Origin: Protoeuglena noctilucae
Lineage: Eukaryota
Length of the DNA: 64,000 nucleotides
Direction of reading: 5' to 3'
Assembly (NCBI GenBank): GCA_958009085.1
Contig: OY253676.1
Coordinates: 1-64,000 of the forward strand
The position numbers and the translations under genes are program-made. Below are positions 1,634 through 37,800 of this stretch, in pieces. Below the pieces are notes generated by a model. It did no database searches and was not told where the DNA came from. It saw nothing but the letters and a program-made list of their open reading frames with translations. Positions within the stretch are counted from its first letter, which is position 1. Every line of letters starts with the position of its first letter.

Positions 1634-1899
1634 TGAAGGGGCTTTCCGATCGACGTCGCGCTCTCTTAAAGTTTCCCCGTAGTCATGCGCTAAATTTCGG
1701 ACGCTGTCTGCTAAGCAACTGCTTATAGAACTCCGGGAAATGAAATGAAACGTGCTTCCCTACATGGGACGTTCCTGACGCTGAGGCTGCGCTTGGAGCA
1801 TCACGTACACCACGCTAGCTCGAGGGCGATCCCGCAACCCATACTCGCGATGGCATACGGGACGAGGGTGGGGGCGAAAGCCACGGGGCGGCGCTCTCT

Positions 1900-3727: not shown

Positions 3728-4147
3728 CGGCAGACAGTGCGTTTTATTTTGAGCGTACCTACCTGACTTGGGCCCGCGCCACCCGCGTGTATCGCCAATT
3801 TCGCTGGCTGCACCTGCGACGGCCTCCACACAGCGCCATACGCCGCCCGGCTGGGTCTGTGATGCGGGCTGAGCTGATGCAAGCGGGGCCGCTGCATAGA
3901 GCGGCCCCATCGCCTCGGGCCTGGCAGGGCCACTTCGTGAGGTGAGCGGGTGGCCATCTGGCTGGAAACGTCACAAGTTCTCGCGCTCGGGACCCGAGTT
4001 ATATGTGAGCTGTGCGGTGGACAACTTGACGCATCTCGGAGAGGCGCGCGAGGGATCCGTCGGGGTGGCCTCGCCGGGCGACGAGAGACCTGATGGGTCC
4101 GTGCACAGAATCATCCCCGCGACTCCCTCGGGCCGCCAGGCTTCTCC

Positions 4148-6768
4148 TATGTCATTCGAGCGTTCGCTGTCATCCCCAGGACCGCGTTACCGCTTGCCGG
4201 GAGGAGGAGATGCTCGATGGCGCGGCGTGCAGCAGAAGGGACCGCCCAGGTGCGGTTTCGGCCGCATCTTACACGCGCTTAAGTTCAAGTTTCGTAGGTT
4301 GTTTCCGTCTTTGGCTGTGCGCCGCACGGCCGGAAGCGATCGAGGGTGCTCTCCTCGAAAAGACCACCATCGCCGCTGCCCATCACTGGCGACATGCACG
4401 CCCCCGATCTCCCGCCTCGCGACGCACACAGCGGTTTCCTTCTACCCATGTGACACAGGCCCCGGCAGCGTCGGTCAACGGGACCCCGCGGCAGACTGTA
4501 GGTGAGTTTTCTGCCTTGTGCCGAGTTCCGCATGTGGTGCTTGCGGCATCCACTCCGATCCTTGCATGTCTCTCCTCAGGCCCCGCGATAGCCATGACCC
4601 ATCTTCTCAGCTCCATGTGTGACCCGTGCTCGCGCAGGCCCCCAGGAGGACACACGGGCGGCCCAGCCACCGACCGGCAGCCGGTGCTGCATCGTCGTCC
4701 TGGGGGCGTCGGGGGACCTGGGTGGGTGCCGCTGCGGCCGCGTGCGCTAGACTCGGGAGCCTTCTTTATCCCGGCGCGCCGAGCCCCACTGCCTAGCCAT
4801 GCCGCCCCCCGGACTGGTCCCCGCAGCACGCAAGAAGATCTTCCCCTCGCTCTTTGCGTTGTACTACGGGAACAACATCCCCCGCGACTTCGCCGTGGTC
4901 GGCTACGCCCGCTCGCGCATGACGGACGCCGAGTTCCGCTCCCGCATCGAGTCATCGCTCGCCTGCCGCGTGGACGCGGGGGCCGACTGCGGGGCCAAGA
5001 TGCAGCAGTTCCTGCAGCGCGTGCACTACGTCAGCGGGCAGTACGACTCGATCGAGGATTTCGCGGAGCTGGACCGCAAGCTGGGGGAGCTGGAGGAGGG
5101 GAGCGAGGGGGCCAACCGGTGGGGCCACGACTCGTGTCACGCATGGCTGCGTGCTGGGTGGCTCTTGCGAGCGCGGGAGCCTCCGTCCCCCTCCGCTGCC
5201 GCAGACTCTTCTACCTCTCTCTGCCTCCCTCCGTCTTCCTGCCCAGCTGTCAGTGCCTGTCTCGCCAGGCCGCCGCCCCCACGGGGTGGACGCGGGTGAT
5301 CGTGGAAAAGCCCTTCGGCCGTGACCTCTCGAGCTACCAGGAGCTCGACAGGTGAGCGACGCTCCCTGCTCGCCCTGCCGCGTCGGCGGTGTCTGGGGCA
5401 GGGGTGGCGTAAGCACCGACCGTGGGTGCCGGTGCAGGGGGATGAAGGAGGTGCTGCGGGAGGACCAGATCTTCCGGATCGACCACTACCTGGGCAAGGA
5501 GCTGGTGGAGAACCTGACGGCGCTGCGCTTCAGCAACCTGGTCTTCGAGCCCCTGTGGAGCCGACAGTACATCCGCAACGTGCAGATCACCTTCACCGAG
5601 AACTTCGGCACCCAGGGGAGGGGGGGGTACTACGACCAGTACGGCGTCCTCCGGGACATCATCCAGAACCACCTCCTGCAGGCGAGATGGCTTGGTGGTT
5701 CGGGGGCACGCGGCCCATGCGGTGGGGTCCACTCCGCGTGTCGACACGGCCTCGTTCCCCTTTGCAGGTCCTGGCGCTGTTTGCGATGGAGCCGCCGGTC
5801 TCGCTGGGGGCAGAGGACGTGCGCAACGAGAAGGTCAAGGTCCTCCGCTCCATCAGCCCCATCCGCCTGGAGGACGTCGTCTTGGGGCAGTACAAGGGAG
5901 TGCCGCGCGAGGGCCTGCCAGGTTCGGGGTCCGCGCGGCGCGTGTAGAGTGGGAGGCGCGCTGGGGTCCGCGCAGCCTCCGATGGTGCGACAACCCACGC
6001 GGCACCCTCGTCATGCGTTCACCATCATCATGATGCGTCCACTCAGTGCGTCCACCCTCATCATGTGACCGTCACCCCCGCGCCGCAGGCTACCTGGACG
6101 ACGACACGGTGCCTCCCTCGAGCACGACGCCCACGTTCGCTGCCATGGTCATGTTCATCAACAACCCCCGCTGGGACGGCGTGCCCATCCTGGTGCGCGC
6201 GGGCAAGGCCCTGGTCCGGCGGGTGGGGGAGATCCGCATCCAGTTCCGCCACGTGCCCGGGAACCTCTTCAAGGCCAAGTACCCGGAGCTCAACCAGAAC
6301 ACAAACGAGCTGGTCATCCAGATCCAGCCGGACGAGCAGATCTACATGCGCATCAACAACAAGCTCCCGGGGCTGGGCATGCGGCTGGGCACCACGCGGC
6401 TCGACCTCATCTACCACGACAAGTACCGGCGCATGAGCCTGCCGGACGCCTACGAGAGGCTCATCCTGGACGCCATCAACGGAGACCGCCGCCTCTTCAT
6501 CCGCGACGACGAGCTCCAGGCCGCGTGGGAGCTCTTCACGCCCCTCCTCAACGAGGTCGAGGTGGGGGGAGAGGGGATGGCATGGGAGAAGCAAGCGACG
6601 CGAGGCACGGGGGAGTGCGCCTGCCATGCCATGCCCCGCGCCTCGCCCCCGCAGACGCGGAAGCTGCAGCCGGAGCAGTACCCCTACGGGTCGCGTGGCC
6701 CCGTCGGCGCCTACTACCTAGCCGCGAGGTACAACGTGCGGTGGGGCGAGGCGGAGGAGAGCGAGTGA
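4148..6768 (+). CDS. G6PD: Glucose-6-phosphate 1-dehydrogenase, plastid type, multi-exon; start approximate
   Basis: [41 protein letters not shown], catalytic [57 protein letters not shown] at 6766-6768. Confidence 0.97.
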
Positions 6769-11708: not shown

Positions 11709-14700
11709 ATGCGGCACCCGGCTCGCCGCCTCGGGCTCGGGGGGTGGCGCTCTGCGCTCGTCCTGGGCCTCCTGGGCACCGTTGTGGCCTTGATAGGTGC
11801 GTCTCCGCAGTTTCGATCGTATGGAGTTGCCGCGAGGGATCGCGGTGCGGGGAGGAGGGGGGGGCTCGGCCTGGAAATTGCCTGGAAAGTCGGGCACCTC
11901 CCGGACGCTCTCGTCCACGGGAATGCTCGCAGCTGCGTCATTCCGTTGGTTGTTTGATATTCCCATAGAAACACTCGGCCCGTTTCGCGCACGAGCCCAG
12001 TTATTCCCGCATCCATGGGCGAATGTGGCTGCACTCGACCCTCACTGTCCGGCCGCTCTTGGCTGCAGGGCTGGCGGCTGGGCAATGTGACTGCGAGGAC
12101 GTCGTCCCCATCGGCAGCCCATACACTTGCGCGCAGCAGAAGTGCGTGGCGCTGGGCCTTGCAGCTGTAATCGCGCTGTGTTGTTGTACTTGCACCTCCC
12201 TTGACTACCGCGTTGCGACTGTGATTGCAGGAGCTACGGTGCGTGCAACGACTCGTTCATCCAAGGGGGGGGCTTCTGCCAGAAGACGTGCGGCGCCTGC
12301 CAGTGCACCGCTTCCGGGGAGGCGGTAGAGGAACCCAACGGCTCCGCTGAGACAGAGGCGGCAAGCCCCGACGACACCGGCAGCTCCGCGGGAGGCGTGG
12401 CGAGCCCGGTCAGTGCGACGAGCCCCGACACCGGCAGCTCTGTGGGAGGCGTGGGGAGCCCAGTCAGCGCGACGAGCCCCGACACCGTCACCTCTGCGGG
12501 AGGCGTGGGGAGCCCAGTCAGCGCGACGAGCCCCGACACCGTCACCTCTGCCGGCCCAGCCACCACGCCAGCAGCGGTGGGGAGCCCGGACGCGGGCATC
12601 TCTGCCGAGCAAGCCACCACGAGCATGGCCAGGCGCCTGCGCGAGGCCATCGAGACCCTGCGTGCCATCGGGGACGTCGGCCGGCGTGAGTGACGCGCAG
12701 CACATTGTTCTCCGATGACTGAGGGCGATCGAAGCTTGCCTGAGCTCCTTATGGACGCCCCGTGTGCCCCTGGCATCCGCAGAGCTCGCTGACGACTCTT
12801 GCACATGCACTGACGTCCCGCCCGCTGACAGCAACTACACCTGCGCGGAGCAGAGGTGAGGTCGGCGTGGCTCGGCGCCTGGCAAGACGGGTGGTGTTGC
12901 ATTTGAGCCAGCGCATCGCCGTTGGCACCCAAGCCTGTCGGGTCACCGCCTGCAGGGCGTTTGGCGCGTGCACCCAGTCGTGGATGGCCGCCAATGGATA
13001 CTGCCAGCGGACCTGCGGGACGTGTAAGTGCCCGGGAGCGACGTCCGCCGCTCCGGCGGCACCCGATGCAGGCACGTTGCGGTACCTCCGCGCCGTGTAC
13101 TCGGACTTTGGATCCCTGCCTGCCCCCTCTGCCCCCCCATGTGAGGCTCGCCGCATCACGCAGTGTCGCGCGACATGCCACCACCCCCTGCCTTGTTGCC
13201 CAGGCAGCCCTTCCGCGCCGCCACCCACGCTTTCTTCTGCGCCGGGCCCTGCAGCGCCGTCGGACTCGGGTGCACCCGCGCCTGCCCCCGCCCCCATGGA
13301 CACCAGCTCAAGCCAGGCATCTGACTCAGGTGAAAGATGCCGGCGGCCATTCCAGCATAGACAAGGTCCACATGCCCTGTTTTGGCACCTGCAGCTCCCT
13401 GGCTCCGTCCCATCTGCCGCAGGGACCCCTTGCGACCCCAGCAGCCTCATGGATGTGCTCCAGAGCAACGCCAACCTGTCGACGCTGGTTAAGGCTCTCC
13501 AGGCAGCCGATATCGCGTCCAGCCTCCCCACGGTGCGGCACCGGCTGGCACGGATGCCGCTGTGGGGTAGACCAAGACCCACATTTATTGGAACTTCTGC
13601 CCCACGCCCATGCTCACAGGGCCCTAAGGTCGTGCTGGCCCCCACCGACTCGGCGTTCAACTTCCTCCTCCAGCAGCTCCCCACGACGCTCGACGCCCTC
13701 ACCACCGACAAGAAGGCACTGACCAACTTGCTTGAGGTGAGGGGCTGCCGATGCTGGCGGGGAGCACGGGACTTGCAAGAGACCCGCCGACGCGGCTGGC
13801 ATGGCGGCAGCTGCCCGTTGCTGATGATGCAAGCCCAGCGCCGTGCGTGCATGGACCCCGTCAGACTCCCCGCAGTTCCACGTCATCCCCAACACCACGC
13901 TGGACCAGGCGCTGTCCAAGCCGCAAGTGCCGACGCTGCTCCCCGGGATGACCCTGTCGCTGGCCAAGTCCAACTCGACGCTGCTGGTCGTCGGCCCGTA
14001 CAACACGTCCATTGTCCGTGCGTCCAAGACCCTCTGCGACGGCACCACCGTCCTGCTGCTGGACGACGTCATGCTCCCTGGCCAGTCGCTGGGGGAGTTT
14101 GAGACGGCGGGCATGCCCGGCGCCGCGCCCCAGGCGCCCTGCAACAGCACCCTCACTGCCAAGTGACCTGCGCGCAGGATGCGCCAACGCCGGCGACCAG
14201 CGCCCTAGAGCACGCCTGACTCCCCAGTATTTCTATTCGTCACCCGCAGGCAGGCAGTCGCCGCCCTGGGCCCTGACTACTCGATCTTCAACCAGGCCCT
14301 GAACCGCACCAAGGTGCTCGACCGCATCGACCGCCCCGGCATCTCGGTCACCATCCTGGCGCCCAACAACGAGGCCTTCCAGAGGTGAGCTGTGAAACTG
14401 GAAACGCGCAGCGGCATGGCGTGCAGCTCATGATCCAACCATGCCGCAACCATGCGCGACTGATCCTGCCACCAGGTACCTCAGCAGCCACGGATACCAG
14501 GACGTGGACAGCGTGCCATTCTCCGAGCTCCTCGACGTCGTGCGCTACCTCATCATCCCCGGCGCCGTCATGCATGCCAACCAGTTCCAGGCAAGAGGGG
14601 GGCGGCATGCAGTTCATGGCTGTGGCAGCAACCAGCCAGGGAAACGCCTCATCTCCGACCCCATGCCCTGCTCGCAGTCGGGCAGCAGCCTGGTGACGCT

Positions 14701-16431: not shown

Positions 16432-16899
16432 ATAGCGATGGCGCCGCTGCATTGTCGGACCCTTGACGCTGAGTTTTTGTAGAGCTTTGCAAGCTGGCCT
16501 CGCGCGGCGCTCTGTTTAATCCAAGTGGCGCATCGTTCAGCAAATATGACATGCGCAAGCCGGTCGTGGATAGATGGCATATGTTAGGCAGCCCATGCAT
16601 TGTCTTGCACGAACACGCGGGCTGGGGATGGGGCAGGGTGGAGGGGCAGTGACCGAGGCGTGTATTGACACGCCGCTCGTTAGGCGCGCGTTTGCATGTG
16701 CCTGAATGCGCCAGGCGGCGTGCCCCTCACCAGGATCGTCCTGGGGGTCGCCGTGGCGCTCCTCTTGGCCGCCCAGCAATCTTCGTTAAAGGAGCAACAG
16801 TACACAGGCTACAAACAGACAAGGTGGCGTGACGAAACCATTGCTGGCAGTCCAGATTAGGTCATCGGACACCAACCTTGCACATGCAACCCCTTCCCG

Positions 16900-19800
16900 C
16901 TAGTCTATCGTCATAACCAGTACGCCCTTTGGGGCCACAGCAGCAGCGTTCGCGAAGTGCATATTATTGGCCAGTTCCTGTGCCAGGGAAGTGGTCTTGC
17001 TACCCTGGCTTTCCACCCCAAGCTCATGCAATGCACGACTGGGGACGTGCACAACCAAGACAGCATTTGGGTTGGCAGCCAGCCGGAGGGCCATGCACAG
17101 GGTGTCAGGCGTAGACGCCATCGACCAAGCGTCCACAGACTTTTGGAAAAACACGAGGGTGGGGGTGCATGTGCGAATATCCCAGGCGAAAAGGCGGCCA
17201 GACCCGTGGCAAACCAGGACGCTGCCGTCGGCATTAAAACCCAGCCAGCAATCAAACTTCAGATCAGTTTGCATATACTTGAGATTTGTGCCCCCGACCT
17301 CCATGGCGCAGATGCGGAATTTGCGGGATTCGGAATCTTTGGCTGCAACAGCCACCCATTTACCATCCCAAGACTGTGCCACGCACTGTCTTCTCATCTC
17401 TTCCCCTGGTGGGTTGGGGTGAGGCAGCGTGCGTGTCGTCTGCCAGGTGGCTGTGTCCATCTGGACCAGACGGCTGCCCTGCCACACCCACGCGTGCCCC
17501 CCATCCGAACTCAGAGCCTCGGCCACGCCACCGTCCTTCTTGCCCCACACAACCTTTGCCTGGTTCCCCGAGGACGGGACACATTGGAAGATGCTGCCAT
17601 ATTCCAGCATGCAGACCCTGTTCTCCCCAGCAAAGACGACACCGGGTGCCGTCGACATGTCCAGATAGGTCGTCGGCACCCCAACACTGGCCACCACCTC
17701 CCCTGTCCTCATGTCCCACATATGCGCATTTGTGTCCCGTGAATCCGACCCAGGGCGTTCCACTCTTGCGATCAGCGCGCCCCTCGCATTGTCAGGGGAC
17801 ACAGCCACGGCTGCCACATCCCCATCCACACGCACCTCGCAGATGCGCGCGCCTGTCGCGGGGTCCACAACGCGTGCTGTGCTTGTGCCGCTGTAACACA
17901 GCACAAGCACGCGCCCATCGGATGACAGAATCGCCCTGTCTAGTTTGGCCCCACTCTCTGCACCCCCAACCACGACTGGCAATGTCCCCTGTCGCCCGTA
18001 CGCAGCTGATGCGTCCCACAGCCGTGCCACATGTTCCTCGTGGCCAGCGACAGTTCCACCGTCAAAGGCCATACAGACATCCCGAATGGGAGACTCTCCT
18101 CGGATCTTGGCGCGGACCCTGCCCGTGGCAGCGTCATATAGGCGCACCTCGCAACGGTCTGGGCCGCCCGCCACGAGCACCAAGGAGCCGTCGGGACTCA
18201 AGCCCTTTACAGCCTCTCGCTCTCCCAACGGAATCCTCGCACGCTCTCGCAGCGTCCTCGCGTCCCATATGAATGCGCCCTGGGAGCTCACGGTGACCAC
18301 CGTCGAACTGTCCGCGCTGACCCACGACAACGAGCCCTCCAGCATTCCACGCTTCTTGCCCGCCCTCACGTCCCACACCAGCGACCCCTTCGCGAGCGCA
18401 GCCGTCACTACGCTGCCGTCGTCGCTTGCCGCGATGCCCTCGTTCGAAACCGACGTGCTATACACCTGCCAGTGATCCGCGTATTCCAGCAAAACCATCC
18501 GTTTAGTCCCCTTCACCGTTGCCCGCAGCCGGCCCGACGGCAAGTCAAACACCGTCAAGTTGTCCCCCTTCTGCCTCATGGCAACCCAGGTGCCATCTCC
18601 ACCCACCACCCCCTGCTGGATCTCTCTCCTTGTCCCCATCTTGGCAAGCGCACCCGCTAATGGCGCTATCCTCTCCCCCCCGGGCACGCTCCACTGCTGG
18701 TACCCACGAGCAGTGAATGTCCCCACCGCCCTCCCCCCATTCACAAACCCAACACCGAACACCTCATCCTCGTCCGTGAGGGTCTGCAACGTACCCGCCG
18801 CGCTGTCGACCAAGAAAAGCCCTTTCTCACCCCACATCGACAGCGTGGCTCCGTCGGGGCTGAACCGCATTTCTGTGCAACTCTCTTTTGGCATTTCTAC
18901 AGTGTGGGTCCTCGCGCCCGTCACGGTGTCCCACAGACTAACGCTTTTGTGGCGCGCTGTGGCAAACACGTCGCCCTTTGGGGAAAGAGCCATGACGTAG
19001 GAAAACCCAGTAGCCAGTACCTGCACCTCTGAGAACCCTTCCACGGTCCCCACCACCCGCACCCGGCCGTCCCTCAGCCCCTCGCAAACACACACGTCCC
19101 CGGCAGCATGCAGCCACGTCCCCTCCGGCGCCACCAGCGCCGCATCCACGGCCAGGCTGGGGCTACCCACAAGCACAGCGGAGAAACACCTGCGAGCGAG
19201 TCGAGACATTTAGAGGATGCCATCGCTGCGATGCAGACATCACCGCACCCCGACCAACATGCCACCCCCGCTCCCCTCACCTCAGCCACGCCCTCGTCTC
19301 CTGCACCAGCGCGGCCTTGGGGTGCGACGCCGCCCTCAGCGCCTGCTCCGCCCTCGCCACGTCCCTCACCAGCCGCCCCACCGCCCCCGCCTCCGCGCAT
19401 GCCCGCACGTACCCCAGGCTCGTGCACAGCCCCGCCGCCACGTCCAGCTCCCCCGCCTCCACAGCGTGGTGCAGCGCGTACACGCTCGCGTATGCTCCCA
19501 CCGCCTCCACCACCCCCCCGCTCCTCCCGCCCAGCCCCGCCGCCTTCACCCTGCGCCCCCACACCACCGCATGCAGCGCGTGGCCCACCCGCACGCCCAC
19601 GTGCCACCCCGACGCCTTGTCCTCCGCCAGCCAGTCCATCACCGACCTGCATGGCGTGTGAGAGCGCACGTCAGGCACGCTAGTCTGCTCCCACCAGCCA
19701 CCAGCCCATCGCCAGCCCCAGTGCAAGCCCCGCCGCGCGTCTGCCTACGCTCACTTGTGGAAGGGCCGCACGCGCCCGTCCGCGCCCACCGGGAACAGGC

Positions 19801-22800
19801 TGCCCATGGCCCCCAGCACGCGCGCGGCTGCCCCCGCGTCCTCGTCGCCGTGCTGGACCAGCTCCTGCAGCTCCGACAGGCCCAGCGGCTCCACGGCCGC
19901 CACCAGCGCCGGCAGCACCCGCGTCCGCACCACCTCCACGTCCCGCTCCCCCAGCGCCCTGAACTGCCTGTCGAAGTACTCCTTGTACAGCGCCCGGTGG
20001 CCCTCCGGCAGATCCCCCACCGCCATGTGCGCCACCCCGCCCTCCACCCTCGCCCCCACCTCCCCCTGCGCCATGCCCACCAGCGCCGCCACGTACGCGA
20101 ACACCCCCGCGCTCTTCCCCTCCAGCGCCTCCACCACCGCGCCCCTCTCCTCCTCGCTCAGCCCCTCGCTCTTGAGACTACCCCGGATGTACGCCCGGAT
20201 GTCCTCGCGGTTGCGACCCTCGCTCGGCTCCAGCGTGAAGGGCTGGAACCGTGCCACCTGCTGCACGATGTACTCCTCCGGCCGCGACGTCACCAGCACC
20301 CGCACCCACCCCGGCAGCTCCCCCACGCACCCCGATAGCACCTGCAGCACCCCGTTGCTGCGTGCGTCCGTCCCCGCCTCGTCCACCGCGTCGATCATCG
20401 GCACCACCGGCGCCTTGGCCCACGCCACGCCCTTCAGCGGGCCCACCACCAGGCTGCGGAGGTCACGAGGCTGTCGAGGTCATGCACTGCGCTTGCTCTC
20501 ACCGGCCTCGCTCATACGTGCCACCCAGCCGTCACCGTACCTAAGCAACCAGTCCGTCGCCGTGCCGTTGAGGTCCAGCCCCCGCAGCCCCTCCTCCACC
20601 GCCACTGCCGCCTCGGGCACCGCCTCCGCCAGCTGGTACGCCAGCGACTGCGCCATCACCCTCGCGTCCGTCCTCGACTCGTCCCCCGCCCGGCAGAAGT
20701 GCCCCCCCAGCAGCCGCCCGGCCCTGTGCAGCTCCAGCGCCACGTGCGCAGTGAACGCCGTCTTGCCCATCCCTGAGGTCGACCGGGGATGGGTGCGTGA
20801 CGCTTAAACTGGCTCTCATCTCATCCCTGCATTTAAGTCCAGCCCTCTCTCCGACCCCACTCGCCTGGCAGGGACAGGAGGAGGAACACGTTGCTGGATT
20901 GCCCCGCCTCGCTCCCCGCCGTCGCCTTGCCGTCCACCCACGTCATGACCTCCTCGGCCAGCCACTGACGGGTCCCCACCTGCGAGAGACAACGGCATGT
21001 GTTTTTTGGCCATGCTCACAACCCCCGCCATCCCTGCCCACACGTTCGCATCCACGCCATCTCGCTCACCATGAACCCCGCCTCCCGCATGTCAGCATCG
21101 TGCAGGAAGTCGTGGTGCTTCAGCGCACCCAGCCCCTCCAGCGACCCTTGTGCCGCCTCGCCCTTCTCCTCCCCCCTCTGCCTGGCCAGCGTCACGGCCG
21201 CCGCCAGGTTCCTGGCGCTCGCGCGCTTGCCCGCCCCGCCCTGCGCCTCGCTCCTGCTCTTCCCCGCGCCGTTCACGTGCACGTACCACAGCACGTCCCG
21301 GAACCGCACGCTGCCCCACTCCAGCTTGCCCCTGCACTTGGCCCCCTGCGCCAGCTGGTACAGGTTGTGCGCCTGCACCCTGTCCGCCAGCGCCAGCAGC
21401 CGGTGCAGGTCCGTCCGCACGAACTCCGCCAGCTCCGGCGGCGCCAGCCTCTCCTCGTACCACCGCGCGGCCTCCTCCAGGATCGGAAGCTCCTCGTTCA
21501 GCAGCGCGATCTCAAACACGCCCCACTCCATCTCCGCCGCCACGTGCGCGAACCCCTCGTCCTCGTCCACCCACAGCCGCCGCAGCTCCCCCGGCAGCTT
21601 CTTCACCTCCTGCGGCTCCGCGTCCAGCACCTGCCCGATCTTGCGCTCCAGCGCCTCCAAGCCCCTGTCCACGCGCTCCCCCAGCGCCGCCACCTGCTCC
21701 CCCACGTTCTGCACCAGCCCCGCCAGCACCTGCTCCCCCGGCGCCAGCAGCCCAAACACCGCATCCACCCTGCCCCGGTCGGCCAGCACCGCCCGCAGCT
21801 GCGCCGGCGACGCGTCCTCCAGCCGCGGTGCACCGACCTCCCAGGCCAGCCTATCCGCCAATCCGCCGGGTCCTGCTCGAGAGCAGGCTGCCGCCCTCCA
21901 CCGCCGCCCGGATCTCCTCCATCCCGCGCAAGGTCTGCACCTGCATGGCCGCCGTCAGCACCCCCACCTGCCCCAGCACCTTGCCCGCCAGCTCCTGCAG
22001 CCCATCCGTGTCGCCCCGCGCCTGCAGAAACCGCCCCAGCCACGTCCGCCCCTCCACCTGCTGCACCAGCCCCGCCGCCTCCTCCAGCAGCCCTGCACGC
22101 AACAGCGAGAGGGTCTGCTTCGTGGGTGCTGCCCTCACCACATTGCATGCGTGCCCGCCAGCCGTCCTACAGCGCGCTGCTCTCCCCGCACCCCTGAGCT
22201 CCTCAAGCGCCCGCGTGTGCTCGCGCAGCACCTCGTGCGCCCCCACCACCACCTCCATCACCCCCGCCACCACGCGCTTGAAGTCCTCCACCGCGGCCCT
22301 CACCGACACGGCCTGGGTGGCGACGGCAGGCGCGCTCATTCACACCGTTCGCAGCCGGCTCGCGGCACGCGCTCTGCGCGACCACCACCCTTCCTGGCCC
22401 TCACCTCGGCGATGCCGGCCATGACCCTGGACGCCACCTCCGCCAAGGGCCCCACCATGGGCGCCCTCGCCAGCACCTCCATCGCCTGCATGCCGCCCCT
22501 GGCCAGGATCCGCAGTACCTCCCCGGTCACGCTGTTCCTCTGCGGGGATGGCGCACAAGACGCATGAGAGCTCACGGAACGCTCGCAAGGCAAGGCGGAG
22601 CCGGCGCGCACAGCCGAAACACTCGCCTGCAGCAGGGTGACGATCTCCGGGGACACCGGCGCCACCGTGTCCCACAGCTTCTGCAAAGACAAGGCGGACG
22701 GATACGCAATGCATGCACGTGGTCTCCGCAAGGTCTCCACAGCGCAGCGTCGCCCGCAGCGCTGCGCCGATTGGCGGACTCGGCCCCGGCCATGCCCGCA

Positions 22801-23226
22801 CCTGCAGCTCAGCCACGCGGCCCTGCCAGCCCTCGTGCACTGCCGCAGCGCGCTCCCCGCCGGCCGCAGGACTGGAGGGGTAATGCAGGCACAACGAAAG
22901 CATGCAGCTGGCTCGGCGCAGCGCGTGCGACGAGGAAAGACTTTTGACCCGTTGAAGCATGACATCTTAGGCAGCGACTGCGCATCTCCGATACGAGCTA
23001 CGCGCGGGATCTCCGGAGCGGCAGCAAACAAGGGCGGCATGCACTGCGGAGAGCACGCGCGGCGTGCCAAGTCTGTCCCGCAAGCTGCGACGCCACTGAC
23101 CTGCTTCTCGTTTGTATCTTTATCCGTCGCAGCTGCCCCGGGTGCGGGCACGTCCCGCGCTTGCTCTCCGGGCGTGCTGACCTCCGTCGCATCTCCCTCC
23201 CCCGGCTTGCTCGCCCCGCAGCCCAT
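16900..23226 (-). CDS. NLR-like STAND ATPase: MGCGAS N-terminus, MLKL/HeLo-like helical domain, NACHT, WD40 repeats
   Basis: Spliced FM|VGTRQWL...FLLLSLP|GMGKTA (Walker A), HFCRAGDESRTD...SLAYQL, IDAVDE (Walker B), VLVTSRPE, NREDIRAYI, KSAGVFAY, RPFHK|SVMDWL. A 2.3-kb last exon has WD40 motifs (ALSPKG...VSLWD, FSPDGATL, LSPDGSLV...RLYD, VARLWD). The joining of the first exon is inferred. Confidence 0.85.
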
Positions 23227-28854: not shown

Positions 28855-31800
28855 TCATGACATGGGGTACACGCGGTTCCCCGGCCCAGCCGAGGGATAC
28901 ACGCGGCTGGGGCGGTCGCCCTCAGCGCCCGCGCCACCCCCCGCGCCCGAACCCTGGCCCTTGCCCGCCCCTTGCCCCCGCGCCCCCCTGTCCCGGGCCC
29001 TCCCCCGCTTCTGCGTGGGGTCCGTGAGCGGCGGCAGAGCCACTTCCTCCTCGTTCATTCCCAAAGCGGCCCTGGCACGGGCGTCCTCCACCCGGGCCTT
29101 GAGGTAGGCCAGCACGGCGACGCGGAGGGGGTCCTGGGGGTGAGGGGGTGGGGAGGGGTGAGGGGGGTGCTGAGTGTGACGAGCGAGGGTAGCAGTGCGG
29201 GGTGGGTGACACGGTGTGCATGCTGATGATGCTGGGAGGGTGTGTCCCAGGGTGCGCATGTTGATGCTGGGACAGTAACCATGCTACTCTCGCGTGCGTG
29301 CTTGCCTGGACGAAGAGTTCGAGGAAGATGGAGAAGAAGGAGGACAGCAGCCACGCGCGCGCGATGGCGGGGGGGAAGTAGAGGCCGTAGAGGATGATGA
29401 GCCAGGTGGCGAGGGCGATGAAGAGGGCGCAGAGGAGGTAGGTGGGCCAGATGAACCAGCGGGGGAGGCCGCGGCGGAGGCGGCGGTCCCTGCGAGGGAA
29501 AGCGAGGGTGGCAATAAGGAAGGGGACAGGAGCGGTCTCAAGGACAGGTCATGCTCCCCTCTGCCCGCCTCTGCTCGTTGCTCGCCTGAGCTGCTTGCGC
29601 CTCTGGAGCCGCCTCTGCTCCCGCATCTTGGCGTTGCGCGCCTGCATCTCCAGCGTCCGACGCTGCACCTCCTCGCCCTCGCGCGCCGCCACCGTGGGCG
29701 CGTCGGGCACCCACGTCCGCACCGGCTTGGACACCAAAGCATCGCTGGGGGAGGCGGCGAGGCGGGAGGGGCGGGCCGGCGCTTGTGCACCTGCCGCGGG
29801 GGCCCCTGACCCCTGGGCGGTGCGTCGGACGCGGTGGGCGTGGACAAACCACACGCCCGCGTCGACGGTGCGCCCCGTGGCCCTCTCTTCGAGCATTTCT
29901 CGCACGCGGTCGCGGGCGAGCTTGGCGCGCCACGCCGCTTGGATGCGCGCGGCGGCCAGGCTCTGCTGCCGGCGCTTGACGGCCATGCGCCTGCGCCACG
30001 CGCGCTGGATGCGCTTGGCGGCGCGGACGAGCGTCGCGTCCACGCCCTCCTCGCCCCCGCGGCCCGCCCCGCCCACCAGCTGCCGGATGCGGTGGTGGCG
30101 GTCGGCGGGCGCCATGGCGTGCAGCGTCTCGGCCATCTCACCCAGCACGCGGCCACCCTGCAGGCGACAAAGATGCGATGCGCTCACATGCCGCAAGCCA
30201 TGCTGAGCGAGAGCTGCTCTATGTGCGCATGACCGCATCCTCGCCCCCCATCTCACCGCGCCCTCCTTGCCCCTGCCAGCCGGGCGCGTGCCCCCGCCCT
30301 CCCCCCGCAGCGTGGCTCGCAGGAACCCCAGGGCCTGGAGCGCCGCGGCACGGGCCTTGAAGCGCTTGGGCCGCATGGGGCTGCCCGCCGCGGGGGGCGG
30401 TGGGGAGGAGGTCGATGCGGTGGGGACGACGCTGCCGGCCGAGGGGGGCGGGCGACGGCGGAGGGACTGCGGGCAGAGAGGGAGGAGAGGGGTAGTGAGA
30501 TGTGGGGAACACGAGAGGGGCACACGAGAGTGGTAGAGGTGATGAGACATGGGGAGAGAGGGGCACATGAGAGCCATGCAACAGAGGCGAGACATGGAGA
30601 GACGTTGAGAGAGGGCACACATCGGCTTTCGTCTCACCGGCGGGCGCTTGGGCCTGGGCACCCCCATGGGCGGGGGCGGTGCGCGCGCGACCGATGCGTC
30701 CGACTGGGCCGACCCGCGGTCTGGGACCGATGCGTCGGCGGACGGGGTGGCGAAGGAGCCGGCACGCACAGCCTCTGCGTAGTCGCCCGACGCGGCCCCT
30801 CTCAGTCCGAGTGCCTGGGCCTGGGCGCCGGGGTGGCGCGTGGGGGGCTTGGCGGAGAGGGATGCCTCGTTGGGGGGGGTGGGGGCCTGCGTTGGGGGCA
30901 TTAGGGTAAACGCGAGGTCAGATGCGAAGAAGGTGGTCAATACCTGGGTCAGCGCAAAGGGCAGTACTCTGCATGTCTGCCCCTCGCCTCGTCCCCCTTG
31001 TCGTCCGCCTCCCCCATCGCCGCCATCCTCGCCGCCTCCTCCATGGCCCTTGCCTCGGCCTCCCTCGCCTGCCGCACGCCCTCGTCGACGTACCTCTCGG
31101 GGAGCTCCAGCGACCGCACGAGCAGCCCGCCGTCGTGCTTGGGGTTGGTGTCGAGCCACTTGCCGCACCGGAACAGCCATGCCTCCGCTGTCTCCAAATT
31201 GACCAGCTCCACGCGGTCAAGGTGCCATGCAGCGTAGAGCCCCGTGCCGTCGTGGCCGATGGAGATCTTGGAGATGTCGCCCGGGGAGGGGAAGTGCATC
31301 TCGAACTCGTCCATCTGGCCGCGCTCGAAGCCGCTTCGGTTGGCGGGGAGCACGATCGGGCCGTAGTCGCTCTTGAGGCCGTACACCTGGGGAGGGGCGG
31401 GGAGTGTGGGTCGGGTGAGAGGGTGAGCGAGTGTCAGAGAGAAGAGGGAGAGGGAGAGGGAGAGGGAGAGGGAGAGGGAGTGAGTGCAACAATCACGCAC
31501 GCACTCACGTGGATGGAGACGGTGGCGTCCGTGCCTGCCCCCCTTCGGTCGCTGGTCCACACGCGGATGCGCCACCGGACGGGCCGGGACTTGGGCCGCC
31601 TGCCCTGCCGCGCCTTCTTGACGGGCTTGGCGGCGCGCGGGATGTACGACGCCTTCTGGAAGAGGAATCGAAAGGCGAACTTGGAGGGGGAGAGGGCGAC
31701 GGCGGTGATAAGGCCGATGATGGCCTTGGCGGCGAGGTTCGAGGGGTTGGTGCCGAAGAACACGGCCACCACGGCGATCTGGGCCAGGATGAGCGACAGT

Positions 31801-34800
31801 AAAATGACCAGGCGCTGGGGGCGCGTGAAGTGGTCGCTGGGGCGGGCGTACATGATGGCCATGACCTCCTGCTGCGCGACGATGGCCGCGCCGACCTTGG
31901 CCAGCACGCCCTCGTCCGCGCGGGAGGCGGACTGGGCGTCGGCGCCCCCCTCAGCACGTCCGAGTCTCGCGATGCGGCCGATGAGGGAGGTCTTGCGCGC
32001 CTGGGACGCAGCCGCGCGCTTGTCCGGGTGAACGAGGCGCCTCTCCAGCTGCGACACCTGCCCCTCCAGCCGCGCCTTGGCCCGGTCGAGCCGATCCTGG
32101 CGCCAGGCCACCACGATGGCCACGCCGAACCCTGCGAAGGTGATGCCGAGGACGTAGAACACCAGCGCGTTCTGGAGGTTGATGCGCGTGAGGAGGTCCG
32201 CGTCCCCGATGGGGTTGACCACGTTGAACTGGGGCAGCGCGTCGTCGGCCGAGATGGCGAAGGACGTGAGGTGCTTGGTCTCGCACACGATGTACGTGCT
32301 GGTGCGCTCGACCTCGAACAGCCCGTCCGTCTGCCACTGCCCCGTGGTGTCGTTGTAGTAGCGGCATCCGCCCACCGTGCGCCGGCACGCCGACCCCGAC
32401 ACCGTCACCGGGATGCGCACGCGGATGCTGGGCTGGTCGGGCGTCAGCCGCACGCTCTCGGGGCCGGACGCGGACTGCGGGTTGGTGAACTCCAGGGAGG
32501 CCACGGAGGAGGCCACGGTGACCCCCGCGGCCGTGGAGGTAAACTGGTACGGGTTGATGGCGTTGTTCTTGGCCACCACGTTGAGAGCCACGCCGGGGGA
32601 GGCGGTGCCCGCGGGGACGTTGAACGACGGGACCGTCGAGTTGGACTGCAGGAGGTCGCGGGAGAGCAGCGAGCGGCGCGCGGTGGCCGCCGTGGTCTGG
32701 CCGGGGGGGGGAGGCAGGATGTCACCGCTCGGGTCCTGCTTCACTTGCACGGCCACCTGGGGGGAAGAGGAGAGGAGCAGGGTGTGTGTGTGTTAGTAGC
32801 GGGCGGCATGAGTGGTAGAGAGAGGGGGGGACGCGGGGTGTGAGTTGCGATGGTGTGGGTGATGGACAGAGTGGGGTGGCGCAGGGATGAGAAGAGCCGG
32901 CCAGGCGGTGCGAGCATTGGGCACCGCTGCACCCCGGCACTCGCCTGGATGTTGGAGGTGGCGAGTGCGTACCCCGGTTCCCCATCCGAGAGGTTGCACG
33001 CGAGGGCGTTGAAGAGCTGCGCCTGGCTCTGGAAGTTGCTCGTCAGCTGCGTCGCCATGGACTGCGACGCCTGGGCCGACTCCTGCAGCCAGCGGCGTGA
33101 GTGCTCCCGGGCAGACTCGCCGCCCTCCAGCAGGGCGCGGCGGGCGGCCAGGCGACGGCGCGTGGCGGACGCCGTGACCTGCGGGGGAGACCGGGTTTCG
33201 ATGGGTTGACGCTGGGCAGTGCGTTGGGTGTGGGGTGCGCGCTGTGGTGTGCGCAGCATCGCAGGGTGGCTCCATGACATGCGCCGCATGATGTGCACCC
33301 TAACCCGCACCTGGCTCGTGGCCTGGGTGTGGACGGCGCCGTCAAGGGAGCTCATGGCGTCGAGGACCCCCTGGGCCCCCGTGAGCTGGATGCAGACGCT
33401 GCCGGTGCGCGCGACGGCCAGGGCGACGACGTTGGCGCCCGTGGCGGTGTCGAGGGTGGCAGGGTCGCCGAAGAGGTCGCGCATGGCGTCGCCCAGCAGG
33501 TCCAGGTCCTGCTGCGACAGCCGCACCGTCTGCCCCGCCACGTACACGGCCGTGATGAGCCGCTTGCCCACCACGCCCGACAGCAGCTGCGCGCTGCGGT
33601 AGTCGTCCACGAGTGCCTGGTCCGAGGGGGACAGTGTGGCTCCCGCGCTCTGCTGCGCCAGGGCCGTGACGGCCGCGGCCTGCTTGCCCTGCACCCAGCG
33701 GTGCAGGATCATGGCGCAGGACTTGGCCAGCGTCAGCAGCGTGGGCACCGTGTTGGTGGCCTGCCGCAGCGCCAGCTCCTGGTCCATCAGCTGAAGCACG
33801 AACGCGGGGTCGCCCGTGTACTGCACCGTGCAGGACGCCGCCCCCGCGGCCAGGGTGCAGGGGCAGCCGGGGCTGGCGCTCTCGGCGGCCGTGCACACGA
33901 GGGGGTACGTGACGCCGGCCGTGACGGGGGGCTGCACAATGGCCGCGATGGGCACGACGGTCGAGGCGCCCGTGGCCCCGGAGACAATGGCCTGGAGGGT
34001 AAGGTTGCGTGCGGCGTCCGTGGTGACGGGGGGCACGAAGATCTCGTCGGCCACGTTGGCCCTGGCCATGGGCACGAGCGGCACGGCGTCGTTTGTGGTG
34101 GGGTCCACGTATCGGAACTCGTAGGTGAGGGCCGTCTCAAGGGCGTCCTCCCACCCGGTGCACGACAGGCTGAAGGGGGTGGAGGCCGCCACGCCCGTGG
34201 TGGGCGACACGGCACACGTGCCGGAGGTGGGGGCGCCGTTGACCTGGAAGCTGACCGTGTCGGCGCCCGCCAGCCCCGTCGCCGTGTCGTTGGCGGAGAG
34301 GCGGAAGGTGTAGGTCTCGCCGGGGGCCAGCTGGTTGGGCGCCACCACGAGCGTGGGGCTCTGGTAGCTGGTGAGCACGGCCTTGCCCAGGGCGGTCACG
34401 TCAAAGACCCCCGCCGTCACCGACCAGGTGAAGTTGGTGGCCTGGTAGATGGAGGCGAAGTAGGCAGCGCGCTGGGCGTCCGTGAGGGCCACGTTAGGGT
34501 ACGTGACGGTGATGTTGCCGGTCAGCACAAGCTTGTCGTTGCCGTTCACCACGTTGGTGGCCAACGGGCTTATCGTCACGATGGGCTGCGCGGCGGGGAG
34601 GCCGTCCACCGTCTGCAGAACCTCGCGGGAGGAGTCCCCGACGCCGTAGAAGGACTTGAGCAGGCGGCCGCGGGGGGTGTCGGCCAGGCGTCGCGCGGGG
34701 GCCGTCACCAGACCCGGCGGGGGCGCCTCGACGGTGACGGTGCGCGACACCGAGACGGTGCGGTTGAGGGCGGCCCCGTCCGCGCCCACCAGGGGCTCCT

Positions 34801-37800
34801 TGGTGGCCGTGGCGGTGAAGAGGTAGGACCCGGGAGAAAGGGTGCCGGGGGGCAGCGTGACGGCGGTGGACTCCGGGGGCGGCGCCAGGAGGCCGTTCGT
34901 GTCGTCGAAGCATGGTCGCGAGGTGGATGGGACGCCGTTGATGACCGGGTTGCACTGCCAGGTGTAGAGGAAGGGGCCGAAGGGGGCCTGGGGGGTGGCG
35001 CCCGCGGGGGAGGGGTCGTTGGGGTCGACAGAGCGGGCGGTGGAGAGGGTCAGGGCGTCGAGCGTGGTGACGAGGCTGGGGGTGTCGAGCACCACGATCA
35101 GAGGCTCGAAGTCCACCATCACGACGGCCTGCGTGGTGCTAGTGAGCTCGGGGCGGCCCTGGACGGACCCCGTGACCTTGAGGTAGTAGACGCTGCCGGC
35201 GGTGAGGGTGCCGGGGGCGATGTAGAGGACACGCGATGTGGAGGTGGCGGGGTCGAGGGGGAAGGTGGCCGAGACGCCCTGGGTCTCGTCGAAGGCCCAC
35301 TGGAAGGTCATGGTGGCGCCCTGGAGGTCGAGGATGCAGGAGGCGGCGCCGGTGCTGGGGATGGTGACGGTGACGGGGAGGTAGAGCGCCTGGCTGCGGT
35401 AGGTGTGGACGATCGCGTTGCCGTCGAAGATGAGGCGCGGGATGGGCTGGCTGCGGCGCGTGACCTGCACAGACTTCTGCGTGAAGGTGTTGAGGAAGTT
35501 GCGGACCTCCACGTAGAAGGTGTAGGTGATGTCGGGGGCCAGGAGCGCGTTGGGGACGGTCACGGACGTGGTGGTGCCGCCGGCCGTGGCGGAGACCAGA
35601 AGGTCCGAGATGGCCTTCTCGTTGGGGACGTTGGGGAGCATGCCCCAGACGAAGCGCAGGCTGCGGCCGGAGCCGCCGTAGGACCCTGAGGCGTCGATGA
35701 GGAGGTCGTCGCAGACCGACACGTACGAGGGGGTGCGGAGGATGACGGTGGGGGAGGGGGAGTTGTCCGGCTGCACGACGCGGAGGGTGCCCTGGGTGCG
35801 GCTGGAGGTGAGGGCGGCATTGATGATGCCGGGCGCCGTGGGCGTGAAGGTGGACTGCAGCTCGGCGTAGTCGCCCGGTTTGACCGTGGCGCGGAAGCCC
35901 AGCAGCACCACGAGCTCCGACGCGTTGCGGAAGGAGCACTGCGCGCCGAGGCCGAAGGTGCCGACGGTGGCGGGGGTGAAGATCTTGGAGCAATCATCGA
36001 GGCCGATGAGCCCCGCGCGGTTGGTGGCCACCTCGGTCGAGCGGTCGCCGGCCAGGAAGTTGACGAGGAGGCTGGTGGCCGTGTCGGAGAAGGTGACGAA
36101 GGTGGGGAGGGGCGCGAGGGCTTTGGAGACCGTGACGGGGAAGGGCGAGCCCTGGATCTCCACCCCGTTCAGCTGGACCGAGAGGCTGAAGCTGCCGAAC
36201 GCGGGCACCGAGTACGACACCGTGTAGGTGCCGGGCTGCGTGAGGTTGTTGACGACGGGGAGCGTGTAGGACTGGAGCGAGATGCCGTACTCGTTGGTGG
36301 GCGAGGAAGGCGTCAGCGTGACTTTAAAAGCGCACTTGTCGGCCGAGGGGCAGTCGTCGTCCGTGGTCTTCGCCTTGCCATTCACGTCCCGCGCCACGAT
36401 CGTGAAGCTCGCAACGACCCCCACGCGCGCCCCCGACACCCCCGTCCCCGTGGCGTTGGTCTGGGCCGCGCTGGTGGCCACCGTGGTCACCGTGCCCGAC
36501 GCCGTGTAAGCGTTGGCCGAGTTGGGCTGCGAGAGAACGTCGGAGATGAACAGCTTGACCAGGTAGGTGCCGATCGTGGGGGGGGTGAAGGACCCCGTGT
36601 AGGTGCCATCGCCCGCGTCCGTCAGCGCCACCGTGGCCTTGAAGCCGCCCGTGTCGGTCTCGGCCGTCACGAGGATGTCGCTTACGTAGCCGCCCACCGA
36701 GAGGGGGTTGCTGTACTGGTCGTACGTGCGCACGAGCAGCTGGACGGGGTTGCCGGCCTCCGTGGCGGCAATGGCCGATGAGAGGTCGCCCCCGGTGCTA
36801 GAGAGCAGGGCCGACGTGGCGGCGCTGGGGGCCGCGGCTGTCACGGCGATGGTCTTGGGGGAGTCGGAGAAGGCCTTCTGCGGGGGAGGAGGGGGTGGGT
36901 GGGGTTGCTTAATGCTGGAGGAGGGTGGGAGCGAGGGTGAACAGCGAACATGGGGTTGGGTACAGGAGAGGGACGGAGCGTGATATTGGTAAACGAAAAG
37001 CAGCGCCAAGCATGGGGTGCAAGCGAGTGCCGGAGCGAGGGCAGGGAGTGAACATGATGTCGGTAAACAACAAGCATAGGGCGCCTTCGCCTTGTCATCA
37101 TGGGTAACCCTACCCTAACCCAGTGCTACTCACCGGCAGCGTCTGCCCCGTGGCGGGGTCGACGGTGGAGGGCCCGAGGAGGTACACGGCCACCGAGTAG
37201 GTGCCGGCCACGCGCGTGTTGAAGAGGATCGAGTAGGTGCTGTCCCGGTTGTCCACGGTGATGATGCTGGCGTTGAGCACCGACTGCAGGTCGGTCGTCA
37301 GCGTCGTGGGCCCCAGCGCCGACTCGGGCTTCACGAACGTCACGGCCGCCTGCACGGCGTTGGACTGGAGCTGGAAGGCCTGGCCGATGACCGCGTTGCC
37401 ATACGAGTCCTTCAGCGACACAACCAGGTACGCCTGGGACCCGGCCGTGAACGACGTCGCCCCCACCGCCACCGAGCTGGCGGACAGGCTGGCCGCGGCC
37501 GCCAGCACCGTGATGGTTCCCTGGTTGGGGCTGGCGCCCAGGAAGACGGGCAGCCGCGCCCCGCTTGCGTCCGACACCACCATGACGTACTGCGCCACCA
37601 CCTGGGTCGTGTAGGTGACCGAGAAGGTCGCGTCGGTGTTCTGCGCCACGGTGGGGGCCGAGGGGGCTGCGACCGACGCGTCCACCGACGACATGGTCGC
37701 CGTGAGTGTCTGCGTCTTGGGAAGCGGCACCTGCACCCACGTGCCCGAAGCGGTCGTGCACGCCGCAGACGTCGTGATGGCTGCATTCAGGGCCCCTGCC

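Follow-up and report, generated by a model that had tools for sequence, protein, structure and literature searches.

What kind of receptor, if any, was encoded by the gene that lies between positions 16,900 and 23,226 near a chromosome end of Protoeuglena noctilucae, and can the copy found there still make it? The gene is on the minus strand of the window, by which we mean the whole stretch of 64,000 nucleotides analysed here (contig OY253676.1 of assembly GCA_958009085.1, positions 1 to 64,000). The original prediction, made from the letters alone, saw a subtelomeric gene related to those of the nucleotide-binding leucine-rich repeat (NLR) receptors, with a lipid-anchor motif, an MLKL/HeLo-like helical domain, a linker, a NACHT domain and WD40 repeats, and proposed a membrane-tethered immune or cell-death receptor. 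The analysis presented here indicates that the locus is probably a recently frameshifted member of a rare, lineage-restricted, NLR-like family of STAND (signal transduction ATPases with numerous domains) proteins with an MLKL-like effector domain. The receptor-like architecture can be read in the exons, but this copy cannot encode a full receptor, as its frame meets a stop after residue 225.

Domain order of the encoded protein

The ten-exon gene model, which runs from an ATG at 23226 to a stop at 16900 (Table 1), was built from the sequence with scripts and has consistent splice phases; the stop-to-stop open reading frames (ORFs) of the minus strand between 23271 and 16900 contain all of the peptides that the original prediction had quoted. 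The predicted order of lipid-anchor motif, helical domain, linker, NACHT-clade nucleoside triphosphatase (NTPase) and WD40 region is borne out by the exon model, by Pfam matches and by a tblastn search with the distant homologue P0130.

The NTPase is assembled from several exons. Its Walker A motif, SLPG/MGKTAF (the slash marks an exon junction), spans exons 6 and 7, while Walker B (VVPMIDAVDEAG) and LVTSRP lie in exon 8. Both Walker motifs fit the definitions for NACHT-clade STAND NTPases (Walker A, GxxxxGK[ST]; Walker B, hhhhD[GA]hDE), and GMGKT, DAVDE and TSRP, all visible in the sequence, are hallmarks of NACHT domains. The Walker A exon matches the Pfam family NPHP3_N (PF24883) at 35.6 and 32.4 bits, above the cut-off of 24.8, and P0130 matches it at 63.1 bits over the full profile (positions 1-164); residues 625-1044 of P0130 align by tblastn with 20782-19337 of the window at 42% identity. 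The NACHT domain of the original prediction is therefore present as a NACHT-clade P-loop NTPase, but the Pfam family NACHT itself (PF05729) scores 12.7 bits in the window exon and 22.2 bits in P0130, both under its cut-off of 26.7.

The WD40 region, which was also correctly foreseen, occupies a single exon of 2.29 kb with matches to the beta-propeller families Beta-prop_THOC3 (the best, 1.1e-21), WDR3 (7e-12) and WD40 (9.4e-5). Its database relatives are the WD40 parts of bacterial nSTAND1 proteins and of fungal NACHT-WD40/het-e proteins, at no more than 34% identity, and Tandem Repeats Finder reports no tandem WD repeats at the DNA level in 16900-19189.

Between the helical part and the NTPase lies the linker, LWVDEDEGF...MEWGVFEIAL, at 21070-21861. 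It had been put at about 250 residues and turns out to be a conserved domain of about 290 residues within exon 5 (LWVDEDEGF...HHDFLHDADMREAGFM). It is conserved in 11 homologues, with P83, L89, W97, W113, W134 and A171 invariant; no Pfam family was matched by the linker, and the ESM Atlas gave no usable match to it.

Relationship of the helical domain to MLKL

The helical segments of the gene are APMVGPLAEVASRV in 22405-22539, VEDFKRVV in 22192-22312 and LEEAAGLVQQVEGRTWLGRFLQARGDTDGLQEL in exon 5. Sequence comparison makes it quite likely that the domain they form is homologous to the N-terminal domain of MLKL. The part of exon 5 at 21911-22087 (minus strand; LEEAAGLVQQVEGRTWLGRFLQARGD...) matches positions 65-123 of the Pfam profile MLKL_N (PF22215), and the case for homology comes from the family to which it belongs. 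In alignment A1, MLKL_N is matched by 8 of the 16 rows at E <= 1, and other families are matched by one row each at most; several of these rows are close paralogues or fragments of the window, and the eight are not to be counted as eight independent witnesses. When seven homologues were scanned singly, five matched MLKL_N: P0137 (26.7 bits, E 4.3e-6), P0132 (22.1 bits, E 1.2e-4), P0130 (15.2 bits, E 0.015), P0122 (14.5 bits, E 0.026) and P0129 (11.8 bits, E 0.17), with P0139 and P0143 giving no match. For P0128 the score is 18.4 bits, over positions 29-120 of the profile. All eight matches share one register, the motif R-[ST]-[WF] falling at profile position 78 in seven of them and at position 80 in the other.

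The relationship can also be found in the reverse direction. A family profile (A2) searched against 177,635 PDB sequences retrieved six MLKL N-terminal sequences, five of them with E-values of 4.8e-4 to 5.8e-4 (22.6-22.8 bits) and the sixth with 4.2e-3 (19.8 bits), and the next match came only at E 0.5. The profile aligns to residues about 60-124 of human MLKL. In the ESM Atlas, residues 30-200 of P0128 have fungal clusters as neighbours, and in the one ranked second (score 0.94) 36% of the members bear MLKL_N.

There are several results that weigh against kinship with MLKL. Exon 5 of the window scores only 15.1-15.7 bits against MLKL_N (E 0.011-0.017), under the gathering cut-off of 27, and by itself this score is not evidence; nor does any family member reach the cut-off, P0137 coming closest. 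A phmmer search of the PDB with exon 5 alone found no MLKL, only chance matches to antibodies, and the first two helices are covered by just two homologues, P0128 and P0130. AlphaFold2 models of P0128 (13 rows; mean predicted local distance difference test score, pLDDT, 61.7, with 44-69 in the helical domain) and of residues 147-313 of P0130 (16 rows; mean pLDDT 66.2) are of low confidence; both contain helices only, including a short one at the RSFLRRLL motif. With such a model Foldseek retrieved nothing from the PDB at E <= 0.001, and VIA-align ranked unrelated helical bundles highest. The AlphaFold2, Foldseek and VIA-align results speak neither for nor against an MLKL fold.

As for the other death-domain families, the window pieces and the 16 family rows gave no match at E <= 1 to 5 to Pfam HeLo, SesA/HELL, Goodbye, RPW8 or Rx_N, in searches whose HMMER filters can drop weak matches. 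Of the MLKL/HeLo-like assignment in the original prediction, then, the MLKL half has gained reciprocal profile support, but HeLo, RPW8 and Goodbye went unmatched and the fold searches were unspecific.

A different account of these data would see no kinship with MLKL: the helices would form a coiled coil or a bundle of the generic kind, and the family would be a STAND scaffold that, like NPHP3, NWD1 or TANC-type proteins, serves purposes other than immunity. We think this unlikely, as eight matches in one register and a reciprocal PDB match to MLKL alone would be hard to obtain from composition, and a rare multi-copy family with a unique sensor-like exon follows the pattern of NLR families and not that of a housekeeping scaffold.

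A seven-nucleotide duplication truncates the reading frame

The frame that should run across the helical, NTPase and WD40 parts is interrupted by a 7-nt duplication. GGCGGAT at 21861-21867 (minus strand) has its other copy at 21853-21859, one T apart, and the window sequence at the break reads ACCC[GGCGGAT]TGGCGGATAGG. The resulting frameshift leads to a TAG at 21853-21851, leaving an open frame of 225 codons from MGC; if the 7 nt are left out of the count, there is one open frame of 1717 codons. As it stands, the gene can only encode a protein of at most 225 residues that comprises the lipid-anchor motif and the helical domain.

Is the break a property of the organism? Four public runs were compared with the locus, including an RNA run (X1), an RNA-library run (X2) and a DNA run (X5). 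The X5 contig 21733-21967 crosses the duplication with 0 differences and no gaps, and the X2 contig 21733-22038 also crosses it without gaps. P0126, a protein of 86 residues that differs from the window at 2 of the 86, ends in the same shifted ...SSRTRRIGG. Because both contigs and P0126 carry the duplication, it is not a private error of the assembly. It counts against this argument that X5 may be the sample behind the assembly, and is therefore not independent support; P0126 is the better witness. Nor is the site an intron, since in the alignments of P0123, P0125, P0127, P0129 and P0130 it is bridged by residues that are conserved. The paralogue P0001, an unspliced ORF on a 2.2-kb metagenome contig that is 92% identical over the linker, reads through the site as ...EGGNLLSSRTLADRLAQEVGATRLEDASP... 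(...SSRT-LADRL...). A metagenome scan with a 32-nt stretch adjoining the break gave 0 matches.

It might nonetheless be argued that the gene is intact and encodes a receptor of about 1717 residues, the 7 nt being an artefact of assembly or strain, or else being dealt with in the mRNA, where an unusual intron or ribosomal frameshifting would remove or bypass them. In favour of this, joining the exons leaves no stop in any of the 1490-odd codons past the break, X1 contains RNA of the 3' exons with their introns properly removed, and the sequence offers in-frame GT/GC..AG pairs by which, on paper, the site could be skipped (21901 to 21799, 103 nt, for example). However, the insertion is found without gaps both in an RNA-library contig and in a DNA-run contig whose depth is that of a single locus, no indel at the locus is reported in any of the four runs, P0126 as a separate protein stops at the same shifted stop, and no spliced contig was seen across the site. 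A skipping intron would also remove residues that the five homologues named above have kept, and the pairs that a scripted list had yielded were rejected on this ground. An intact gene is, in our estimation, distinctly improbable.

The break is judged to be young, because about 1490 downstream codons are still open in DNA of 67% G+C. Most likely, this copy is either a pseudogene of recent date or an allele that has been truncated, with transcription and splicing still going on.

The truncation could also be functional in its own right, yielding a free, lipid-anchored, MLKL-like protein of 225 residues, comparable to stand-alone RPW8/HR and HeLo proteins, that serves as an executioner, a decoy or a regulator of intact paralogues. 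The stop falls just past the part that matches MLKL_N positions 65-123, so that the whole helical domain is kept; P0126, a slightly different sequence, shares the truncated end, so that the allele or copy would have persisted; and spliced RNA from exons 2-3 exists. On the other hand, the open downstream frame favours a very recent event over a settled new gene, the break site is without RNA cover in the spliced run X1, and P0126 may be the same locus in another strain. The free four-helix-bundle domains of MLKL and of NLRs, moreover, are usually toxic to the cell. Altogether a functional truncation seems rather improbable, and we return to the young pseudogene or truncated allele as the preferred reading.

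Exon 1 and the lipid-anchor motif

Exon 1 starts, as predicted, with MGCGASK at the ATG at 23226, in which Gly2, Cys3 and Ser6 make up a motif for N-myristoylation and palmitoylation. The consensus for N-myristoylation asks for a Met-Gly start, a small side chain at position 6 and any residue but Pro at position 7, with Cys3 available for palmitate, and in a test against it both the MGCGASK of this gene and the MGCGASS of P0130 fit. P0130 is a full-length distant homologue (33% identical, 1119 residues, on contigs of 3.6-4.1 kb in ENA and JGI) in which MGCGASS is followed by the helical domain, the linker and the NTPase. Because so distant a homologue also starts with MGCGAS, its sequence supports both the membership of exon 1 in the gene and the motif as a family trait, and is the best evidence for either. 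Residues about 25-95 of P0130 form an extra N-terminal segment (LVAMLETAGLADNAELRAALKRHG...) that is absent from the window gene.

Less favourable to the linkage of exon 1 is that the junction of exons 1 and 2 was not observed in the RNA contigs of the runs compared, and that an unspliced X2 contig (22631-23006) crosses the border between intron 1 and exon 2. One X1 contig, by contrast, runs about 10 non-genomic letters upstream of exon 2; as these do not match intron 1, the acceptor at exon 2 appears to be used.

Splicing of the remaining exons

The gene stretch is matched in marine metatranscriptome runs, and X1 provides direct evidence of splicing. A joint from 22539 to 22627 skips 87 nt with CT..GC ends on the plus strand, as expected of a spliced intron 2. 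Two loose ends of X1 contigs, at 19753 (CCAGTCCATCACCG) and at 19191 (CAGCCACGCCCTCG), are the reverse complements of the start and the end of exon 9, and introns 8 and 9 are therefore spliced as well. X1 contigs span 16800-18565 and 18762-19191 with 0 differences; 21883-22324 is without cover in that run. The X2 contigs at 19034-19303 and 20946-21199, like the one mentioned above, are unspliced, and X2 is therefore uninformative on splicing. Two apparent joints in a DNA run at the locus rest on sides of only 20-21 letters and were not used as evidence.

For exon junctions 3/4, 4/5, 5/6, 6/7 and 7/8 we relied on homologous proteins, which reproduce all of them. P0133 and P0144 reproduce junction 3/4 (...TGIAE/AVAVRAALEDFKRVV); at junction 4/5, P0137, P0128 and P0130 are without the residues that intron 4 would encode; and continuity through exons 5, 6 and 7 is seen in P0130, P0137 and P0139, which read ...AGFMxGTRAWL...SLPGMGKTA.... 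In P0133 and P0144 exons 3 and 4 are contiguous in ORFs from genomic contigs of up to 829,798 nt, and some paralogues or relatives therefore seem to be without intron 3, the presence of which would seem to vary within the family.

Eight of the nine introns are 87-108 nt long, intron 1 being the exception at 420 nt. Two of the nine, at 22540-22626 (confirmed by the RNA joint) and at 20773-20864, have GC-AG borders with the same donor, GCGAGT; this is an unusually high share, and it may be typical of the organism.

A rare family with several close copies

An HMMER search of 1,835,955,588 representative proteins with P0001 found 12 relatives at E <= 1e-3, all of them unnamed and all from metagenomes, transcriptomes or unannotated genomes. 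No annotated orthologue was found: the linker exon matched only the unspliced P0001, and P0144 matched only the window ORF P0147. A metagenome scan with P0130 gave 40 pattern matches, none of them a relative, and neither blastn nor tblastn detected a second copy of the gene within the window.

In the organism's own DNA run, numerous short contigs of 95-99% identity, with loose ends, lie across 19231-22545 (exons 3-9), at a summed contig depth of 75-279 as against 35-40, a rise that is not to be read as a copy number. Long single contigs carry exons 1-2 and the WD40 exon, and variants typical of P0001 (at 22050 and 22051) occur in the same run. Several close copies therefore have the core in common but are unlike each other at both ends. 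The pattern is not that of a conserved single-copy housekeeping orthologue, which would have spoken against the original prediction; on these sequence data the family is rare, multi-copy, lineage-restricted and NLR-like.

Chromosomal setting

Window bases 1-268 are a telomere repeat, scored by Tandem Repeats Finder as 45.7 copies of ACCCTA (period 6, 89% matches), and the gene therefore lies 16.9-23.2 kb from the chromosome end, in agreement with the subtelomeric position first proposed. The repeat unit is the 6-mer CCCTAA, with degenerate inner copies (CCCTGA, CCCAAA and a run of A). The G+C content is 0.62-0.73 across the whole window. The neighbours of the gene are ordinary genes, including those for an R3H-associated protein and a glucan phosphorylase, and genes of housekeeping type occur within 7 kb of the telomere (398-6765), so that the chromosome does not end here in a repeat zone poor in genes. 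At 12372-12605, in GC-rich surroundings, a 54-nt unit is repeated in tandem (3.3 copies at 93% matches), and a unit of 108 nt is scored for the array as well. Farther from the telomere than the receptor-like gene, the region of one or more giant genes contains one ORF of 3148 residues and has a layout like that of a polycystin-1-like receptor.

Table 1. Coordinates of the exons and selected introns of the gene, and of other genes in the window.
Feature	Position	Strand	Remarks
Exon 1	23226-23101	minus	42 codons, MGCGASKPGEGD...TNEKQ; donor GTCAGT
Intron 1	22681-23100	minus	420 nt; GT-AG; sole long intron
Exon 2	22680-22627	minus	KLWDTVAPVSPEIVTLLQ; joined to exon 3 in RNA contig
Intron 2	22540-22626	minus	87 nt; GC-AG; donor GCGAGT; RNA joint
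Exon 3	22539-22405	minus	RNSVTGEVLRILARGGMQAMEVLARAPMVGPLAEVASRVMAGIAE; first helices of helical domain
Exon 4	22312-22192	minus	AVSVRAAVEDFKRVVAGVMEVVVGAHEVLREHTRALEELR(G)
Exon 5	22092-21070	minus	1023 nt; end of helical domain and linker domain of about 290 residues
Exon 6	20979-20865	minus	VGTRQWLAEEV...VFLLLSLPG
Intron after exon 6	20773-20864	minus	GC-AG
Exon 7	20772-20541	minus	Walker A (G)MGKTAF; first half of NTPase
Exon 8	20453-19755	minus	Walker B VVPMIDAVDEAG; LVTSRPEE; helical and winged-helix part
Intron 8	19647-19754	minus	108 nt; X1 loose end
Exon 9	19646-19281	minus	SVMDWLAEDK...RAWLR; helical region between NTPase and WD40; kept in P0130 and P0134
Intron 9	19190-19280	minus	91 nt; X1 loose end
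Exon 10	19189-16900	minus	WD40/beta-propeller region; 762 codons and stop
Pyridine nucleotide-disulphide oxidoreductase gene	398-1759	minus	
Glucose-6-phosphate dehydrogenase (G6PD) gene	4030-6765	plus	
Polycystin-like giant gene or genes	30952-46556	minus	REJ, GPS, PLAT; many filamin/Ig-like repeats

Discussion

In the model that we favour, the family is laid out as a Met-Gly-Cys acylation motif, a helical domain that would be homologous to that of MLKL, a domain of about 290 residues, a P-loop NTPase of the NPHP3_N type and, at the C-terminus, WD40 propellers. If fungal HeLo/HELL-NACHT-WD40 proteins, plant NLRs of the coiled-coil (CC) and RPW8 types and MLKL are taken as analogues, an intact member would be held on a membrane by its lipid anchor. 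The WD40 part would sense a ligand, the NTPase would drive oligomerisation, and the helical domain, once exposed, would disturb the membrane. In the copy described here, the 7-nt tandem duplication shifts the frame just after the MLKL-like domain. It is from these analogies that we infer an immune or cell-death role for the family.

A bolder possibility is that marine unicellular eukaryotes have an expanding family of lipid-anchored, MLKL-like NACHT-WD40 proteins that would bring about death by membrane rupture on infection, for example by giant viruses, and that truncated alleles might act as a sensor-less tethered executioner or as a decoy that tunes the response. We regard this as a long shot. 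Were it true, an MLKL-type death domain would be under NLR control outside animals, fungi and land plants, and there would be a genetic handle on the virus-induced death of plankton blooms. Regulated death of plankton is ecologically important and the genes behind it are mostly unknown, so the family offers candidates. The frameshifted copy is itself an instance of the birth and death by which such genes turn over close to a chromosome end.

How far would this family extend what is known? Fungi and plants are already known to join STAND NTPases to helical death domains of the MLKL/HeLo/RPW8 type, and animals have MLKL itself. A family built along these lines in a marine eukaryote with GC-rich DNA would extend the range over which sensing is known to be coupled in this way to attack on membranes. 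What would be new in the family is the conserved N-terminal acylation motif together with a 290-residue domain without a known family. Word searches of the open-access literature, which are not proof of absence, found no MLKL-like-NACHT-WD40 family described from marine protists. The available text of a survey of NB-ARC NLRs from streptophyte algae to angiosperms is without mention of NACHT or WD40 (PMC11218826). NACHT, TIR and LRR (leucine-rich repeat) genes are reported to be raised in virus-resistant Gephyrocapsa huxleyi (PMC12489294), but nothing ties that work to the present family.

Among known systems, bacterial nSTAND1/NACHT-WD40 proteins, such as those of Catellatospora and Streptomyces (26-29% identity), are the best-scoring relatives of the WD40 exon, but the likeness is confined to generic WD40 propellers and their effectors differ (trypsin-like peptidase and others). 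Vertebrate MLKL, which consists of a four-helix bundle, a brace and a pseudokinase (PDB 2msv, 6d74, 6zvo, 6zle, 6ux8 and 6lk5), resembles the family in that the domain is placed N-terminal to a regulatory part. The regulator here, however, would be an NTPase with WD40 propellers and not a pseudokinase, about 100 extra residues and the lipid motif precede the family's bundle, and the likeness in sequence is marginal with the fold unconfirmed.

Membrane tethering by N-terminal acylation has a precedent in some plant CC-NLRs, for example RPS5. Plant NLRs are built with NB-ARC and LRR, whereas the family described here has a NACHT-clade NTPase and WD40 and is without a Pfam match to RPW8 or Rx_N. 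The arrangement in plants is otherwise similar, as in CC-NLRs and RPW8-type (CC_R) NLRs, considered together with the plant MLKLs (10.1101/681015), a helical-bundle death domain is N-terminal in a STAND receptor. Outside land plants, a further source describes exon shuffling in the NB-ARC-TPR genes of brown algae (PMC10197012).

The closest parallel is with the fungal NLRs of the NWD/HET-E type, with HeLo, HELL or Goodbye-like N-termini, which have the same order of helical effector, NACHT-clade NTPase and WD40, are likewise multi-copy and variable, and have NACHT-WD40/het-e members among the relatives of the WD40 exon. The same source describes HeLo and HeLo-like domains, homologous to the four-helix bundle of MLKL, as N-terminal parts of some fungal NLRs, and attributes over half the annotated N-termini of fungal NLRs to the Goodbye-like and HeLo-like clades (PMC10197012). 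Unlike these fungal proteins, the gene matches MLKL_N only, and not HeLo, SesA/HELL or Goodbye; it has the additional domain of about 290 residues between effector and NTPase, as well as the acylation motif; it is without the DNA-level tandem WD repeats of het-e; and its source is marine and non-fungal-looking, with 67% G+C and GC-AG introns.

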